Positions 1-61,457 of a DNA stretch of 64,000 bases are shown here, in pieces. The translations under genes and the position numbers were made by a program. Source of the DNA: an uncultured delta proteobacterium (GTDB taxonomy: Bacteria > Desulfobacterota > Binatia > Binatales > Binataceae); NCBI GenBank assembly GCA_963842085.1, contig CAWJET010000001.1:2688001-2752000 (forward strand), written 5' to 3'. A model generated the notes under the pieces. It was given only the letters and a program-made list of their open reading frames with translations. It had not been told where the DNA came from and ran no database searches. Positions within the stretch are counted from its first letter, which is position 1, and each line of letters starts with the position of its first letter.

Positions 1-678
1 TTGATCGCTGGAATCGCCGCTGCACTTGCGACGCGCGCGCCCAACGCCGAAGTGATCGGCGTCGAGGCTGCAGGCTCACCGCAACTGTCCGCGAGTCTCG
101 CCGCCGGCGCGCCCGCATCGATCGGCCATCCCGTCGACACTATTGCCGACGGTCTGGCCACCGGCCGTATCGGCGCGATTCCGTTCGAGGTGATGCGCGG
201 CCGGGTCAGGCGCGCCGTCACCGTCGACGACTTCGAAATAGGCGAGGCCGTCCTCCTGCTGCTCGAGCGTCTCAAGCTTCTCGCCGAAGGCGCCGGCGCT
301 GCCGCGCTTGCGGGCGCGCTCAAACTCAAGGACGAGCTGAAAGGCAAGACCGTGGTGCTGGTCGTGAGCGGCGGAAATATAGACATGAACCTGCTTGACC
401 GGATTATCGGCCACGGACTAGTGAAGGTCGGGCGGCTGTTTCGAGTCGCCGTCGATTTGCGCGATCGCCCAGGCGAGCTCGGCAAGTTACTGTCAGTCGT
501 CGGCGCGACCGGCGCCAACGTCCGCGCGATCAATCACGATCGCACCCGCCGCGACGTAGCGATCGGCGGCGCCCGCGTGATGCTCGAACTGGAAACTCGC
601 GGCCCCGCCCACATCGAAGGGATCCGCGAGATGCTCAAGCGTCACGGCTATGAGTTTACAGTTCCAGCGCTCGGCTGA
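1..678 (+). CDS. ilvA: Threonine ammonia-lyase (PLP fold II) with C-terminal ACT domain, 5' end outside the window
   Basis: DTIADG, EGAGAA and VSGGNID motifs; ACT domain DRPGELGK...LELETRG. Confidence 0.85.
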   Translation: MIAGIAAALATRAPNAEVIGVEAAGSPQLSASLAAGAPASIGHPVDTIADGLATGRIGAIPFEVMRGRVRRAVTVDDFEIGEAVLLLLERLKLLAEGAGAAALAGALKLKDELKGKTVVLVVSGGNIDMNLLDRIIGHGLVKVGRLFRVAVDLRDRPGELGKLLSVVGATGANVRAINHDRTRRDVAIGGARVMLELETRGPAHIEGIREMLKRHGYEFTVPALG

Positions 679-56971: not shown

Positions 56972-57787
56972 ATGCCAAAGATTCAAGTCGGCGAAGTGAA
57001 CCTCAACTACGACGTTGCCGGGAAGGGCGAGCCGCTCCTGATGATCATGGGTCTGGGTGCCAGCTCGGCGGCATGGGATCCCGAGCTGATAGTCGAACTC
57101 GCACGCACGTTTCGCGTGATCACTTTCGACAATCGCGGCACTGGGCAGAGCGACAAGCCTGACGCTCCATATTCGATCGAGATGTTTGCCGATGACACGG
57201 CGGGGCTGCTCGGGAAGCTCGACGTTTCGCGGGCGCACATCTTTGGCGTCTCGATGGGCGGAATGATCGCGCAGGAGTTCGCGCTGCGGCATCCAGCTCG
57301 AACGGCGACGCTCACGCTGGGATGCACCACCGCGGGTGGCACGCACTCCGTGCCGCCGCCGCCCGAATCGCTGAAAATTCTGACCGCGCCGCGTGTAGGT
57401 GTTTCGCCGGAGGACGTGATTCGCCGCGGATGGCCGCTTGCGTACACGCCAAAATACATCGCCGAGAATCGTGCGGTGCTCGAAGCCGGGATCCCGCGCC
57501 TGCTGAAGTATCCAACGCCGCCGTTTGCGTTCCAGCGCCAACTCGAAGGGACCTACACGCTGAAGACTTTCGACCGCCTGCCGCAAATCAAGGCGCCGAC
57601 GTTGGTCATCACGGGTGCCGAGGACGTGCTGCTCCCGGCGAGGAACTCCGAGATAATCGCGGCTCAGATACCCGGCGCGAAATTGCACATCATCCCCGGC
57701 GTCGGACACGCGTTCATGGCCGAAGGCCGCGATGCATTCCTGAAAGTATTTCTGCCGTTCGTAAAATCGCATCCAATGGGCGCGTAG
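56972..57787 (+). CDS. Alpha/beta hydrolase (enol-lactone hydrolase-like)
   Basis: FDNRGTGQS, GVSMGG, ED, VGH; SD GAGGA. Confidence 0.9.
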   Translation: MPKIQVGEVNLNYDVAGKGEPLLMIMGLGASSAAWDPELIVELARTFRVITFDNRGTGQSDKPDAPYSIEMFADDTAGLLGKLDVSRAHIFGVSMGGMIAQEFALRHPARTATLTLGCTTAGGTHSVPPPPESLKILTAPRVGVSPEDVIRRGWPLAYTPKYIAENRAVLEAGIPRLLKYPTPPFAFQRQLEGTYTLKTFDRLPQIKAPTLVITGAEDVLLPARNSEIIAAQIPGAKLHIIPGVGHAFMAEGRDAFLKVFLPFVKSHPMGA

Positions 57788-57806
57788 GCGCCGATCCGCG
57801 CGGCGC

Positions 57807-57835
57807 TTGCCATGCAGGCATATTTTCGCTATATC
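57807..57835 (+). promoter_or_regulatory. Candidate sigma-70 promoter of the deaminase cassette
   Basis: TTGCCA-17 nt-TATATC; predicted start near 57842-57843. Confidence 0.5.
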
Positions 57836-57914
57836 TTCGCCTATGAGCGAGGGCGACATTCGAGTGATCAAGACGCCTTCTGCCACTCATTCTTATCTTA
57901 TATTCTCTTAGTTC

Positions 57915-59435
57915 GTGCCAAAGGCAAAAAAGAAGCGGCGGCGGCAGCGGCGGATTGACGGGCGCCTTCGACCCGAAATTATCTTCGGATTGGTCGCCGC
58001 AATCGGCACCCCGATCGATCTCTTCACGGAAACATTATCAGAAGCGCTATCCGTGAGGGGTTACAGGAGCGAAACGGTACCCCTGAGCTACTTCGCAAGG
58101 GGCATCCGAATGGAAACTGCACCGCCGCCGGAAGGAGCCGCAGAATATGAGCGCTTGGACAGTCTGATAAAACTGAACAACGAGCTGCGAGAGAAAACCG
58201 GCCGAGGCGATATTCTTGCCCGCTTCGCTGCCGCGAGCATAGGCGCAAAGAGATCCGGGCCGACAGCAGCGATCAGGGATACCGCGTTCATTCTTCGTCA
58301 ACTCAAACATCCGCACGAAGTCCAACTTTTGCGCGAGATATACGGTGAAAGATTTTACCTCATCGGTCTGTATTGCGGCCGCGACGAGCGAGAGAACACT
58401 CTCCACGTTCACGGTAAAATGAAACTGGAACAGGCTCAAGAATTGATAGAGCGAGATCAGTATGAGCCACCGAAATTCGGGCAGAAGTTCCGGGACACAT
58501 TTCATCGCGCGGACGTGTTTGTTCCGTTTTCTCAATCCTCCGATGTGCAGGAAAGGCAGCGAAAGCAAGTCGAACGATTTCTAGCGCTAGTTTTCGACGA
58601 GGATCTGCTGACGCCCACGAGAGATGAATACGGGATGTTTATGGCATTTGCTGCGTCGCTCCGCTCGGCGCAGCGGTCTCGTCAGGTAGGAGCGTCGATA
58701 TTATCTGATAGGGGTGAGGTCTTAAGCGTTGGCACCAATGAAGTCCCGAAGTTTGGGGGCGGCGAATACTGGGAAGGAGACGATCCAGATCAACGCGACC
58801 ATAAACGCGGAGAAGACTCTTCCGAGAAAATGAGAAACAGTATTCTTAATGAAGTTTTCCAGGTTCTCCGTCCCGAATGGAACTCGCTAAGCGAATCTGA
58901 TCGCTCAAAAATCGTCGCTGATACTCGCGAGAAATTAGAGTCCGCCGATGCCCGGATCATGAAACTCACCGAATTTGGTCGCGCTGTACATGCCGAAATG
59001 GCGGCCATTGTGGGGGCTGCGCGCGTGGGGATGTCTGTCTCCGGCGCTACGCTTTATACCACCACCTTCCCATGTCATGTTTGTGCGAAACACATCATAG
59101 ATGCGGGCCTGAAGAGGGTTGTGTACATCGAACCATACCCTAAGAGTTTGGCCGGAGAGCTTCATGAAGACTCTTTGTCGATCGACGAATTCGCTGGTGC
59201 AGGCAAGATTGCCTGCGAACCTTTCTTGGGAATAGCCCCAAGACGTTACGTGGATTTCTATTCAATGACGACGAGAGAGGGGCTGTTGAAAATAAGCGGC
59301 GAGCGCTCTGGAAGTGCGCAAGAAGGCCAGCTAGCCTCCGAAGTCGCGGCGGCAGAATTATCATACGTTCAAAGGGAACGCCTTGCAGCTAAGTTACTGC
59401 AATCGATCTTGCCGAGCGGAACGGGAGGAGGATGA
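57915..59435 (+). CDS. avcD: Anti-phage dCTP deaminase (AvcD-type P-loop kinase-like domain plus Zn deoxycytidylate deaminase)
   Basis: EIIFGLVAAIGT, QLKHPHEV..LR.IYG, SRQVGA, NEVPKFGGG, RAVHAEM, TTFPCHVCAKHII, YIEPYPKS, APRRY; AT-richer than the flanks. Confidence 0.88.
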   Translation: MPKAKKKRRRQRRIDGRLRPEIIFGLVAAIGTPIDLFTETLSEALSVRGYRSETVPLSYFARGIRMETAPPPEGAAEYERLDSLIKLNNELREKTGRGDILARFAAASIGAKRSGPTAAIRDTAFILRQLKHPHEVQLLREIYGERFYLIGLYCGRDERENTLHVHGKMKLEQAQELIERDQYEPPKFGQKFRDTFHRADVFVPFSQSSDVQERQRKQVERFLALVFDEDLLTPTRDEYGMFMAFAASLRSAQRSRQVGASILSDRGEVLSVGTNEVPKFGGGEYWEGDDPDQRDHKRGEDSSEKMRNSILNEVFQVLRPEWNSLSESDRSKIVADTREKLESADARIMKLTEFGRAVHAEMAAIVGAARVGMSVSGATLYTTTFPCHVCAKHIIDAGLKRVVYIEPYPKSLAGELHEDSLSIDEFAGAGKIACEPFLGIAPRRYVDFYSMTTREGLLKISGERSGSAQEGQLASEVAAAELSYVQRERLAAKLLQSILPSGTGGG

Positions 59436-59620
59436 TGGTAGACCTAGTTCGTGAAGATTCGACGAAAGAAGGTCGTAGGATCTGGAAACTAGTCGAGAAG
59501 GTTGCGGCAGGAGCTCCAAAGGATGCGGCGCTGCAGAGCGATCAATTGGAGATAGGCGAGTTCGCTCGCACCCCTTCCGCAAAGGAACAAAGATCTGTCA
59601 AGCGCCGGCGCGGTCGCTGA
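59432..59620 (+). CDS. Small hypothetical protein translationally coupled to the deaminase
   Basis: GGAGGAGG SD (59424-59431) and ATGATG overlapping the deaminase TGA; start at 59432 or 59435. Confidence 0.65.
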   Translation: MMVDLVREDSTKEGRRIWKLVEKVAAGAPKDAALQSDQLEIGEFARTPSAKEQRSVKRRRGR

Positions 59621-59759
59621 TTATGCGCTAAATCCCTTTCAGCTCGTAGATCAAAGGCCCTCTGCTCTACCTAGAAGCATAGGCCCTCGGTCCCAATCGG
59701 GGGGAGGCGCTAGCTTGCGGCGCTTGCGCGAGGCGTCGCGGGCGGCATTAATCTCGTAC

Positions 59760-61457
59760 GTGCCCTCGTTTTACGACTTCGCAATCGTCTGCCAGTCGCT
59801 CAGCCAGACCCAGAGCCGGATTCAGATGGCCGAGACGGTGGGCTCGTTCCTCGCCTCGCTCGATGTCGATGAAGCGGAGATCGCGGCGCGATTCATAGTC
59901 GGCCGCGCGGTCGAGCAGGGCGAGGAGAAGCGCCTCCAGATAAGCGGCCGCGCGATCTGGAAAATCGTTGCGGAGATGACGGACAGCGCCGATCAGGGCG
60001 AGGACATCTTCATCGCCGCCGAAGACTTCGGCGAGGCGGTCGAGATGACGCTCAAGCTTCGCGCCGCCGACCCCGAACCGACGCTCACGATTCGCGAGCT
60101 CAACGAAAAATTCGCCGCGATTGCCGCGATCGAGGGGCGCCACGCACGCAAGCGCAAGCTCGACGCGCTGCGCGAGCTGTTCACGCGCGCGTCGGCATTC
60201 GAGGCCAGGTACATCGCGAAAATTCTGATTGGCGAGATGCGCCATGGGGTGAGCGAGGGCTTGATGCTCGAGGCGATTGCCCGGATGGGCGGGCGGCCGG
60301 TCAGCGAAGTTCGCCGGATTCACATGCTGGAGGCCGACCTCGGCCGCGTGGTGCGAATCATGCGCTCGCCGGGCGCGGAAAAGTCTGTCGCGGAGAAACC
60401 TCTGGCGGACGGGGTCGCCCCTCGCACGCGCGCGGTCAAGCCGCTCAAGCCGATGCTTGCGTTTCCGATCGCGGACGTTGCGGAAGCGTTCGCTACGCTC
60501 GGCCCGGAACTATCATTCGAGCACAAGTTCGACGGCGCGCGCGTGCAGATACATCACGCGGGCGACGGCGGCGTGCGAATTTTCTCGCGCAGGCTGAACG
60601 AGATTACCGAGAGCATTCCCGACGTGGTCGAGGTTGTGAATCGAATCGGCGCGCGCCACGCGATTCTCGACGGTGAAGTGATCGGCGTCGACGCGTCGGG
60701 GCGGCCGGCCGCATTTCAGGATCTGATGCGGCGCTTTGGACGCACGCGCGGCGTCGAGCAGGCACGCGCCGAGCAGGCGCTTAAACTCTACGTGTTCGAC
60801 CTGCTCGCGCTCGACGGCGCGTTGACGATCGATCGCCCGTGGACGGAGAGAATTTCCATGCTCGAGGAACTGCGGTCGTCAGCCGGACTGGAGATTGTCG
60901 AGCGCATCATCAAGCCGAATCTCGCCGATGCCGAAAAATTCTACGCCGACGCAGTCGCCGCCGGATACGAAGGCGTGATGGCGAAGTCGCTCGCGAGCGC
61001 GTACACGCCGGGCGCGCGCGGCCGCGGATGGCTCAAGATAAAGCACACGCACACGCTGGATCTGGTGATCGTCGCGGCCGAGTGGGGCTACGGCCGCCGC
61101 CACGGCTGGCTTTCCAACTACCATCTGGCGGCGCGCGACAAGAGGGGAGGGTTCGCGATGCTCGGCAAGACTTTCAAGGGGCTCAGCGACGAGCAATTCC
61201 GCGCGATGACCGAACGGCTGCTCGCGCTCAAGACCGCCGAGTCGCAAGGCGTCGTGACGGTTCGTCCCGAGGTCGTCGTCGAGGTTGCGTACAATGATAT
61301 CCAGCGCAGTCCGAACTACGATGCCGGAATGGCGTTGCGATTTGCGCGCATCGTGCGCATCCGCGACGACAAATCACCCGAGCAGGCGGATTCAATCGAT
61401 ACTGTGACTGCGAACTACCAGCGGCAGGCAATAAGGCCGCAAGCGGACAAAGCCTGA
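59760..61457 (+). CDS. ATP-dependent DNA ligase with N-terminal DNA-binding domain (LigB/archaeal-like)
   Basis: KPMLA, EHKFDGARVQIH, LDGE, FDLL, EGVMAK, WLKIK, LRFARIVRIRDDK. Confidence 0.93.
   Translation: MPSFYDFAIVCQSLSQTQSRIQMAETVGSFLASLDVDEAEIAARFIVGRAVEQGEEKRLQISGRAIWKIVAEMTDSADQGEDIFIAAEDFGEAVEMTLKLRAADPEPTLTIRELNEKFAAIAAIEGRHARKRKLDALRELFTRASAFEARYIAKILIGEMRHGVSEGLMLEAIARMGGRPVSEVRRIHMLEADLGRVVRIMRSPGAEKSVAEKPLADGVAPRTRAVKPLKPMLAFPIADVAEAFATLGPELSFEHKFDGARVQIHHAGDGGVRIFSRRLNEITESIPDVVEVVNRIGARHAILDGEVIGVDASGRPAAFQDLMRRFGRTRGVEQARAEQALKLYVFDLLALDGALTIDRPWTERISMLEELRSSAGLEIVERIIKPNLADAEKFYADAVAAGYEGVMAKSLASAYTPGARGRGWLKIKHTHTLDLVIVAAEWGYGRRHGWLSNYHLAARDKRGGFAMLGKTFKGLSDEQFRAMTERLLALKTAESQGVVTVRPEVVVEVAYNDIQRSPNYDAGMALRFARIVRIRDDKSPEQADSIDTVTANYQRQAIRPQADKA

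Follow-up and report, generated by a model that had tools for sequence, protein, structure and literature searches.

Our best explanation of the segment 57800-59727 of the window (the whole 64,000-nt stretch of DNA analysed here) is that of a horizontally acquired, self-contained two-gene anti-phage cassette, whose small protein serves as a dedicated partner of the enzyme, most likely as a labile inhibitor; we consider this reading somewhat probable. As its components we envisage a promoter of its own, a dCTP deaminase as effector and, coupled to it in translation, a protein of 62 aa. The type of enzyme is already known, while its small partner has previously gone unremarked and probably controls the enzyme. 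Family membership of the deaminase, insertion of the segment as well as coupling, conservation and purifying selection of the small gene are directly apparent from the data presented below. The coordinates of all features are given in Table 1.

Table 1. Features of the cassette and its surroundings. Positions are nucleotides of the window unless residues are indicated.
Feature	Position	Strand	Remarks
Hydrolase gene	56972-57787		upstream of the insertion
Gap between hydrolase stop and deaminase GTG start ("leader")	57788..57914	+	127 nt
Left copy of the 11-nt direct repeat GCGGCGCTTGC	57800..57810	.	bounds the insertion
Promoter-like element	57807..57843	+	hexamers read by eye; not called by the consensus promoter scan
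Anti-phage dCTP deaminase gene (predicted by sequence), 506 aa	57915..59435	+	GTG start; NF041025, PADLOC dCTPase, Pfam dCMP_cyt_deam_1
Deaminase, basic N-terminal tail	residues 1-20		
Deaminase, kinase-like N-domain	residues about 21-230		
Deaminase, zinc deaminase domain	residues about 235-460		
Deaminase, long C-terminal helix	residues 470-498		
Catalytic zinc motifs HAE and PCHVC	58989..59084	+	from translation and alignment
Shine-Dalgarno-like GGGAGGAGG	59423..59431	+	in the final part of the deaminase gene, immediately ahead of the small ORF
Small partner gene, 62 aa	59432..59620	+	start inside the deaminase stop codon (ATGA overlap)
3' arm (from the small gene to the right repeat)	59621..59716	+	no homology with the G028 copy
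ATP-dependent DNA ligase gene	59715-61457		downstream of the insertion; annotated TTG start
Right copy of the 11-nt direct repeat GCGGCGCTTGC	59717..59727	.	overlap with the start region (annotated TTG) of the ligase gene

The first-pass annotation had described a 506-aa protein with a degenerate P-loop N-domain and intact HAE/PCxxC motifs and had assigned it to the nucleotide-depleting defence family, and both statements agree with our results. The degenerate P-loop GLVAAIGT is located at residues 25-32; HAE occupies residues 359-361 (nt 58989-58997), followed by PCHVC at 386-390 (nt 59070-59084). H359, A360, E361, P386, C387 and C390 are invariant in 15/15 aligned family members. The NCBIfam model NF041025 matches residues 21-453 with 441.8 bits against a cut-off of 400 (442 bits in a six-frame search), PADLOC returned dCTPase (PDLC02373) with 506.3 bits, and Pfam dCMP_cyt_deam_1 matches as well. 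The AlphaFold model of the deaminase has a mean pLDDT of 77.4. Using Foldseek, the N-terminal half retrieved 3h0k (TM 0.80), 3lw7 and 1t3h, i.e. adenylate-kinase-like folds and dephospho-CoA kinases, and the C-terminal half the dCMP deaminase-like structures 2w4l, 7fh4 and 1vq2. Judged by these sequence features, the enzyme belongs with the AvcD-like anti-phage dCTP deaminases and not with the housekeeping dCMP deaminases.

A grouping with housekeeping dCMP deaminases (ComEB/Dcd type), which the first-pass annotation had itself named as an objection to its proposal, is contradicted by the family scores: ComEB TIGR02571 yields only 55.8 bits against a cut-off of 219.45. We give next to no credit to an ordinary housekeeping dCMP/dCTP deaminase followed by a chance downstream ORF. 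The resemblance of the C-terminal domain to dCMP deaminases is in line with it, but the ComEB score, the sporadic distribution, the low-GC insertion and the conservation of the small ORF across the clade are not. Moreover, contig 2 of the host genome carries another deaminase-domain ORF, of 173 aa, and a short ORF of this kind, mostly of 142-313 aa where listed, is present in most relatives. A full-length homologue of the 506-aa enzyme was found at E <= 1e-60 in 3 of the 61 related genomes; a fourth, weaker match among them (G056) consists of two pieces with one TAG inside. In the phylum sample, 6/401 genomes contain a homologue at E <= 1e-30. The distribution of the deaminase is sporadic and the gene mobile.

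The segment had been noted as AT-richer than its surroundings and as inserted between the hydrolase and the ligase gene, and it proved to be both. GC content is 0.51-0.55 over 57800-59600 and 0.60-0.67 on either side in the window. The segment is an insertion because the hydrolase and ligase genes adjoin in relatives without it and because an 11-nt perfect direct repeat, GCGGCGCTTGC, bounds it at both ends, the two copies being 100% identical with a spacing of 1917 in the repeat search. The insertion of low GC thus spans 1,917 bp, with a cassette of about 1.8-1.9 kb. An empty site with a single copy of the 11-nt repeat is seen in genome G028 (L041). Both junctions are bridged by soil-metagenome contigs from two studies, and the insertion is therefore not an assembly artefact. 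No empty-site joint was seen in four soil sequencing runs that were searched for insertion polymorphism. No RNA data set carrying the locus turned up in the list of sequencing runs. The host of the cassette is a soil bacterium. In genome G016 the same slot is occupied by a type II restriction-modification system (MTase_II 516.7 bits, REase_II 314.3 bits). DNA homology with the deaminase copy of G028 (80% identical) is confined to 57967-59616, that is to the deaminase and the small ORF up to its last codon. The 3' arm that follows contains an 11-nt direct repeat with imperfect copies at 59652-59662 and 59678-59688.

Upstream of the deaminase 127 bp are available, as had been stated, but the description of this leader as structured did not hold. 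The RNA fold of 57788-57930 has a z of -0.62 with 52/200 shuffles folding as well, and an Rfam search of 57000-60500 came back empty at E <= 1. Neither promoter nor terminator was called in the leader by consensus scans; the sole terminator-like hairpin (57805-57819) sits at the left repeat and is within shuffle expectation. Promoter-like hexamers were read by eye, a -35 TTGCCA at 57807-57812 and a -10 TATATC at 57830-57835, separated by a 17-nt spacer. The only upstream stretch kept with respect to the G028 copy is the 20 nt from 57824 to 57843 (95% identity), which in each copy precede the start codon by ~90 nt; outside this promoter-like element no leader homology to the G028 copy was found. 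Likewise, a blastn-short comparison among 9 clade upstream regions gave one match, namely these 20 nt of the window-G028 pair. As the RNA leader is unsupported, the proposed three-part layout of structured leader, deaminase and coupled small gene reduces to promoter, deaminase and small gene, with its second and third part standing as described.

These data also bear on an AvcID-like type III system, in which the small-ORF region or the 127-nt leader would give rise to an inhibitory RNA, the ORF itself being incidental or of dual function. There is a precedent for it in the family, AvcI (PMC10511110, PMC12409362), and an upstream gap with a conserved 20-nt element inside is present. Nevertheless we regard such an RNA as very unlikely: neither the fold nor Rfam supports it, the leader is not conserved save for the promoter-like 20-mer, the 9 clade upstream regions share no sequence except in the window-G028 pair, and the small-ORF region evolves as protein (pN 0.19 vs pS 0.69). 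An RNA antitoxin was not found at the locus by the Rfam search, the fold test and the comparison of leaders.

In the tree, the deaminases linked to this small ORF form one clade (support 97/98). The tightly coupled small gene that had been claimed for the window recurs in the same overlapping arrangement in 12/12 complete loci of this clade, covering at least three taxonomic classes. They comprise 9/9 complete loci from the genome contig set (ORF of 55-68 aa), the window, L067 and L071. L016 was dropped because a contig end cuts the locus, and L027 (16 in-frame stops) and L025 (apparent frameshift) were left out of alignments and counts. In L067 the ATG of the small ORF lies 7 nt before the end of the deaminase stop codon; in L071 the overlap is TTGA. 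Purine-rich stretches comparable to GGGAGGAGG precede the small ORF in related loci. As to the conservation of the flanking elements, on which the first-pass annotation had made its proposal depend, the answer is divided: the small ORF is kept throughout the clade, the leader beyond its 20 nt is not.

The small protein consists of a conserved N-terminal module (residues about 1-31, with R7, R15, W18, A25 and A28 invariant) and a variable, mostly basic tail. Between the window and G028 the small ORF shows a pN of 0.187 and a pS of 0.693 (dN/dS about 0.11), and between L017 and L018 a dN/dS of 0.23; it evolves as a protein under purifying selection. No match was obtained in Pfam, NCBIfam, PADLOC or PHROG, and no DNA-binding or antitoxin domain was found. 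The best lead from the ESM Atlas, to the PSK antitoxin family PF07704, reached only 0.81, below the 0.9 mark. Homologues of the small protein comprise 58 clusters without family name and, in a further search, 108 representatives. Two loci, L066 and L068, retain the small ORF, whereas no more than the final 70-135 nt are left of the deaminase gene; such remnants are few (2), and that of L068 depends on weak tblastn matches (E 0.1-0.3). A clade deaminase without the small ORF occurs in 0/12 complete loci. The asymmetry of orphan small ORFs and no orphan deaminases fits an antitoxin. In the literature searched, a protein partner of a defensive dCTP deaminase found no mention.

The complex of deaminase and small protein was modelled with a score of 0.75 (three runs: 0.75, 0.73, 0.75), while three control complexes all scored 0.00. 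This mark was reached by 58/80 solved complexes and 2/110 mismatched pairs, a calibration that is only rough for this model, whose alignments were made by hand and had just 15 and 10 rows. At least 54% of contacts recur among the runs, and the partner pLDDT is 58 or more. No solved like complex or full-length homologue was found, and the pass is therefore unlikely to stem from memorisation. In the model, the N-terminal helical module of the small protein contacts the N-domain and the C-terminal helix of the deaminase. The invariant W18, A25 and A28 of the small protein fall in the predicted interface. On the side of the deaminase, the predicted-interface residues T95, R97, D99 and A492 are invariant in 10/10 clade members and different in all 5 sequences outside; mean clade conservation of the predicted-interface residues (0.63) is not above that of the rest of the deaminase (0.70). 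Binding of the small protein to the deaminase is thus a prediction of the model. The suggestion that the locus is controlled by a miniature RNA and/or a small protein survives in its latter half, with a small protein that is conserved, coupled and a predicted binder, and loses the RNA leader.

From these observations and by analogy to the tested members of the family we propose the following mechanism. The small protein, whose helical module the model places as a clamp on the kinase-like N-domain and the C-terminal helix of the deaminase, would most likely be an antitoxin-like brake in the role that the AvcI small RNA plays for AvcD, a role that we assign by analogy. Being continually made, it would keep the enzyme off. 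Once a phage shuts off host gene expression, synthesis would stop, the presumably labile small protein would decay and the enzyme would be released. As inferred by homology to tested members, the enzyme would then deaminate dCTP (and dCMP), and the loss of dCTP would starve phage DNA synthesis.

Coupling, conservation and predicted interface fit a positive partner equally well. In this case the small protein would be a sensor or adaptor whose module docks on the kinase-like domain, and the basic tails of both proteins, disordered in the case of the small protein, would bind nucleic acid or a phage component, thereby switching on or targeting the enzyme. We judge this unlikely on the whole, though it deserves attention. 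The tails of the small proteins carry a net charge of +4 to +6 in 9/10 cases, and the N-terminal extension of the deaminase is net positive in 7/8 delimitable clade members and 0/4 outside, the start codons of these extensions being uncertain. The occurrence of the module behind other defence genes also suits a generic sensor or adaptor better than a dedicated antitoxin. On the other hand, remnant loci with the small gene and without the enzyme fit an antidote better than an activator, and tested family members are freed by the loss of a labile inhibitor (PMC10511110, PMC12409362).

The module is not exclusive to the deaminase. Its 30-residue consensus reads K-L-V-R-N-T-S-x4-R-x-W-W-x-A-V-x2-A-A-x2-A-P-K-L. 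Within the class of genome G456, 2/13 matches follow other defence genes, BrxL (120-nt gap) and PDC-M19B (36-nt gap), and the module is also found downstream of PDC-M19A. Among the 108 representatives 24 are longer than 100 aa; some of them embed the module, one protein twice. Ten long module-bearing proteins were all unnamed singletons in a cluster look-up, and a metagenome scan gave one 1.3-kb contig, uninformative as to gene context, encoding a 231-aa protein that embeds the module. Other branches of the deaminase family are without the small protein: compared by hhalign with the small-protein alignment, small ORFs downstream of the deaminase at three distant loci reached probabilities of 0.1-0.2, and Pfam returned no match for five small downstream ORFs of other branches. 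Neighbouring small ORFs unrelated to it occur in other branches at L021, L022, L024, L051 and L055, and on plasmid NZ_CP148280 as a 60-aa gene located upstream.

The small gene might hence be an independent one that is frequent at the 3' ends of defence cassettes, for example as a mobility factor, as a small regulator or with some other role. It would then have no action on the deaminase, and the predicted complex would be a false pass. The positions downstream of BrxL and PDC-M19A/B, the embedding in unrelated larger proteins, the unrelated small ORFs behind other deaminase branches and the 2/110 mismatched pairs that reach the mark as well are all compatible with independence. However, the stop-start overlap in 12/12 clade loci of at least three classes would be hard to reconcile with it, as would the G028 DNA homology block stopping exactly with the small ORF, the three complex controls at 0.00 and the clade-specific invariant residues within the predicted interface. 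In addition, each of the 5 genomes searched yielded one match, always the copy beside the deaminase. Independence of the small gene appears quite improbable to us.

More speculatively, the module may be a portable clamp that keeps defence effectors off. It would have replaced the AvcI RNA as a protein antitoxin in the deaminase clade, variants would close BREX BrxL and PDC-M19 operons, and larger, fast-evolving carriers (one with the phage-type domain phrog_7775) would be antidote mimics of phage counter-defence that hold the enzyme off during infection. We put this forward as a long shot. A degenerate DNA pattern of the module had 2 matches in viral contigs, both chance; the query proteins P0059 and P0129 have no relatives in viral contigs, and P0120 matches viral contigs and phage records only via its C-terminal phrog_7775-like domain and not via the module. 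Among 50,697 phage records, a 34-aa query of the module had no match at E <= 10. A phage origin of the module was rejected, these searches of viral contigs and phage records having given no module match.

Returning to the small protein as inhibitory partner, its predicted grip on the regulatory half of the enzyme makes it a concrete candidate for control in another branch of the family. The size of the cassette and its putative own promoter suit cloning. If the presence of the module behind defence genes and in larger proteins is functional, this could be a sign of a more widespread motif of regulation or counter-defence.

We take NF041025 and PADLOC dCTPase to be the enzyme of Tal et al. 2022, which has reportedly been treated as a single-gene system. 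The deaminase of the window resembles this system in scoring above the curated cut-off, in its kinase-like N-domain with degenerate P-loop followed by a zinc domain (HAE, PCxxC) and in being sporadic, mobile and located in a defence slot. It differs in that here, as in the whole clade, a conserved 55-68-aa protein is coupled to the 3' end and forms a predicted complex with the enzyme. Type II toxin-antitoxin pairs with reversed order, such as higBA and hicAB, encode the toxin first. They are similar to our locus insofar as the small protein directly follows the enzyme, is translationally coupled, is a predicted binder and can survive as an orphan. Unlike in those pairs, it is without a recognisable DNA-binding domain or antitoxin family, and toxicity and neutralisation are putative.

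To our knowledge, restraint and infection sensing of defensive dCTP deaminases are known only for the Vibrio AvcID, via a labile RNA. A table of a 2026 review gives the sensing of dCTP deaminase as unknown (PMC13276650). AvcD is kept inactive by an unstable RNA next to it, and a shut-off of transcription releases the enzyme (PMC10511110, PMC12409362). The AvcID systems of V. cholerae and V. parahaemolyticus (type III, AvcD with AvcI RNA) and the cassette share the same effector family and likely the same logic, in which a small labile product encoded beside the enzyme restrains it. In contrast to AvcID, the adjacent element here is a protein-coding gene downstream of the enzyme and not an RNA. 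If our reading is true, RNA and protein alike can serve to control one and the same effector.

To judge from its sequence, the 506-aa protein of the cassette belongs to an established defence family and is nothing out of the ordinary within it. It reaches 441.8 bits with the NCBIfam model NF041025 'anti-phage dCTP deaminase' (cut-off 400) and 506.3 bits with the PADLOC dCTPase model, and Pfam places a cytidine/dCMP deaminase zinc region in it. The first-pass annotation, which had read a defence dCTP deaminase with intact HAE/PCxxC motifs, is borne out on both points. The protein is not a housekeeping dCMP deaminase: with the ComEB model it reaches just 55.8 bits, where the cut-off is 219. Two halves can be told apart in an AlphaFold model (mean pLDDT 77.4). 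According to Foldseek the C-terminal half resembles the dCMP deaminases 2w4l, 7fh4 and 1vq2, the N-terminal half adenylate-kinase-like and dephospho-CoA kinases (3h0k, TM 0.80). Structure searches including Foldseek found no solved structure of a full-length relative.

Full-length homologues (E ≤ 1e-60) are present in 3 of 61 related genomes, namely G000, G028 (79% identity to the window copy) and G010 (35%). A more distant full-length relative in G056 of the same class (locus L004, C32:150445-151617) aligns as two pieces, both weaker, contains one TAG and may be a broken copy. Most relatives also carry short deaminase-domain ORFs, mostly of 142-313 aa where listed, and a separate one of 173 aa lies on contig 2 of the window genome. 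In an even sample of the phylum the family is matched in 6 of 401 genomes (E ≤ 1e-30).

Features of the cassette and its borders (window positions unless residues are indicated)
Feature	Position	Strand	Basis or location
alpha/beta hydrolase gene	56972-57787		upstream of deaminase ORF
Deaminase ORF, 506 aa, GTG start	57915-59435	+	ORF call
Zinc motif HAE	residues 359-361		translation; invariant across 15 aligned relatives
Zinc motif PCHVC	residues 386-390		translation; invariant across 15 aligned relatives
Small ORF, 62 aa, ATG overlapping deaminase TGA	59432-59620	+	ORF call
ATP-dependent DNA ligase gene	59715-61457		downstream of small ORF
Perfect 11-nt direct repeat GCGGCGCTTGC bounding the insertion	57800-57810 and 59717-59727		repeat search

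The segment with both genes is an insertion into a slot, the hydrolase-ligase junction (57788-59727), which is variable across the genus. Comparing positions 57000-60700 with 40 genus relatives, the unpublished genome G023 counted in, matched the flanks in all 40. By our own reading of the matches listed, hydrolase and ligase pieces share a contig in 34 relatives; among these matches they abut exactly in 11 of the 34 (e.g. G028, G001, G027 and G036), at query positions 811 / 2715 corresponding to 57810 / 59714, in 20 a distance of 0-381 nt separates the aligned pieces, and in three they enclose 1.2-2.4 kb of other DNA. In G016 (L043) the slot is occupied by a type II restriction-modification pair (PADLOC MTase_II 516.7 bits, REase_II 314.3 bits); G025 (L045) has a TetR gene there together with a hydrolase, and G021 (L044) an unassigned 357-aa gene. 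The AT-richer segment noticed earlier between hydrolase and ligase (GC 0.51-0.55 over 57800-59600 vs 0.60-0.67 on both sides) is confirmed as an insertion by the empty sites. G028 exhibits a single copy of the 11-nt repeat at its empty site and harbours its own cassette elsewhere in the genome, where the neighbours are DUF3987 genes, a primase-like gene and an IstB fragment. At the DNA level the two cassettes are homologous only over 57967-59616, a block that runs from codon 18 of the deaminase to the last codon of the small ORF. In soil metagenomes of two studies both junctions are spanned by contigs (X2 record 1, 57300-60058, 4 differences; X3 record 6, 57530-59769). The insertion ends where the ligase gene is annotated to start with TTG (59700-59760), so that what originally lay upstream of this gene has been displaced. 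In its place, the right end of the insert supplies a G-rich Shine-Dalgarno-like stretch ahead of the gene, for which an in-frame GTG at 59760 offers another start.

Linkage of the small gene to the deaminase was evaluated on 17 loci from genome contigs, ten of them at 45-80% identity and nine of these complete; the tenth, L016, is cut by the contig end and stands outside the count. All nine show an overlapping ORF of 55-68 aa with ATGA or GTGA over the deaminase stop. Together with L067 (whose ATG precedes the end of the stop by 7 nt), L071 (TTGA) and the window, coupling is found in 12 of 12 complete loci, and these deaminases form one clade (support 97/98). The small proteins share an N-terminal module of ~30 residues with invariant M1, R7, R15, W18, A25 and A28, followed by a variable tail with a net charge of +4 to +6 in 9 of 10. 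Window and G028 copies differ by pN 0.187 and pS 0.693 (53 codons), L017 and L018 by dN 0.088 and dS 0.376; by these substitutions the small gene evolves as a protein. It has no family match in Pfam, NCBIfam, PADLOC or PHROG. A profile search yielded 58 clusters of 52-85 aa, named 'hypothetical protein' at most, and 108 matches at E ≤ 1e-3 among 1.84 billion representatives. In 5/5 genomes examined the gene is single-copy and adjoins the deaminase. Within the phylum sample a convincing match is confined to G000 (three more at E 0.003-0.008 look like chance), and deaminase family members occur in five further genomes; the small protein thus marks one branch of the family.

Near-identical soil metagenome strains differ at 59574 and 59597, both in the tail of the small ORF (P48R and V56I in our reading of the frame), and once in the deaminase (58081). 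Clade deaminases carry a strongly basic, variable N-terminal extension (57915-57974 in the window; N-termini of L011-L019) mirroring the basic tail of the small protein; with start codons uncertain, its net charge is +10 in the window, and it is positive in seven of the eight clade members with a delimitable extension vs 0 of 4 outside. In other branches of anti-phage dCTP deaminases (L021, L022, L024, L051, L055) unrelated ORFs of 53-77 aa begin within 17 nt of the deaminase stop, and on the 4.6-kb E. coli plasmid NZ_CP148280 (L056) a hypothetical gene of 60 aa (705-887) is annotated 55 nt ahead of the deaminase. It may be general for members of the family to have a variable small partner.

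Modelling of deaminase and small protein as a complex scored 0.75 (runs 0.75, 0.73 and 0.75), the best of three controls 0.00. Of 80 solved complexes 58 attain the mark applied, of 110 mismatched pairs two; this calibration holds only roughly here because our own small alignments served as input. The runs have at least 54% of contacts in common, with partner pLDDT of at least 58. Residues 3-42 of the small protein are predicted to contact the kinase-like domain (60-66, 91-111, 134-142, 187-188) and the C-terminal helix (482-503) of the deaminase, with the invariant W18, A25 and A28 making some of the best-defined contacts. In the part of the predicted interface contributed by the deaminase, T95, R97, D99 and A492 are invariant in 10/10 clade members and differ in 5/5 outside relatives; within the clade the interface is not more conserved than the rest of the protein (mean 0.63 vs 0.70).

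The 127-nt leader (57788-57914) does not fold better than its shuffles (z = -0.62; 52 of 200 equally good) and has no Rfam match. It shares with the G028 copy a single stretch of 20 nt (57824-57843), ~90 nt ahead of the deaminase start in either copy, around which a sigma-70-like promoter (TTGCCA, 17 nt, TATATC) can be read by eye; a consensus promoter scan gave no call for this element. Apart from this pair, no sequence is common to any two of nine clade upstream regions. A conserved structured leader is therefore not supported. Of the layout and control proposed in the first-pass annotation, the structured leader and miniature RNA thus find no support in fold, Rfam search or conservation; the tightly coupled small gene is borne out, and control by a small protein is probable.

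A survey of the GTDB class holding L012-L015 and L017-L019 (225 genomes; NCBI labels these MAGs variously, which is misleading) detected the small protein in 13 genomes. In nine the gene is coupled to a deaminase. In two it survives beside a mere 70-135 nt from the 3' end of the deaminase gene: in L066 (G511) homology to L014 sets in 74 nt ahead of the stop, and TTG has replaced ATG as the start of the small ORF, and L068 shows weak C-terminal deaminase matches ending just before the small ORF. The other two have it after different defence genes, BrxL (L069, G674; PADLOC 233.7 bits, 120-nt gap) and PDC-M19A/B (L070, G523; M19B 362.4 bits, 36-nt gap). Orphan small genes without orphan enzymes are the pattern expected of an antidote, albeit in small numbers.

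The small proteins after BrxL and PDC-M19A/B carry the S-T-P-E / S-T-E-E module variant and close their operons; the BrxL gene seems spread over two reading frames, and PDC-M19B is preceded by the DUF488 gene PDC-M19A. Downstream of both the L014 cassette and the L066 remnant come genes for a ParD-like antitoxin and a zeta-toxin/AAA_33 kinase. L066 has a second, partial zeta-like copy upstream and, by eye, an apparent part of a tRNA gene at its deletion edge. Among 108 module-bearing representatives 24 exceed 100 aa; P0059 has the module twice, and P0120 joins it to a C-terminal domain matching phrog_7775 (E 4.8e-11), a type of domain that occurs in viral contigs. Unrelated larger proteins of 167-556 aa embed the module (P0059, P0074, P0120, P0123, P0129, P0135, P0159, P0154), as does the product of L050 522-1217; all are unnamed metagenome singletons, and searches of viral contigs and phage records did not support a viral origin.

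According to the AvcID literature, the Vibrio AvcD deaminates dCTP and dCMP; AvcI, a labile RNA encoded beside it, holds it in check post-translationally, and phage shut-off of host transcription releases it (PMC10511110, PMC12409362, PMC11951105). By analogy we infer a similar logic for the window cassette with protein in place of RNA: the small protein would be a brake on the deaminase, coupled translation would supply it along with each enzyme molecule, and its decay after shut-off would free the enzyme. Less probably, the small protein would have an activating or sensing role, or one independent of the enzyme. The literature searched mentions no small-protein partner of a defensive dCTP deaminase. 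Taken together, the cassette resembles AvcID in an effector from the same deaminase family and, putatively, in the logic of inhibition and release, but differs in that these analyses revealed no RNA element and in its conserved, coupled protein partner with a predicted docking site on the enzyme.
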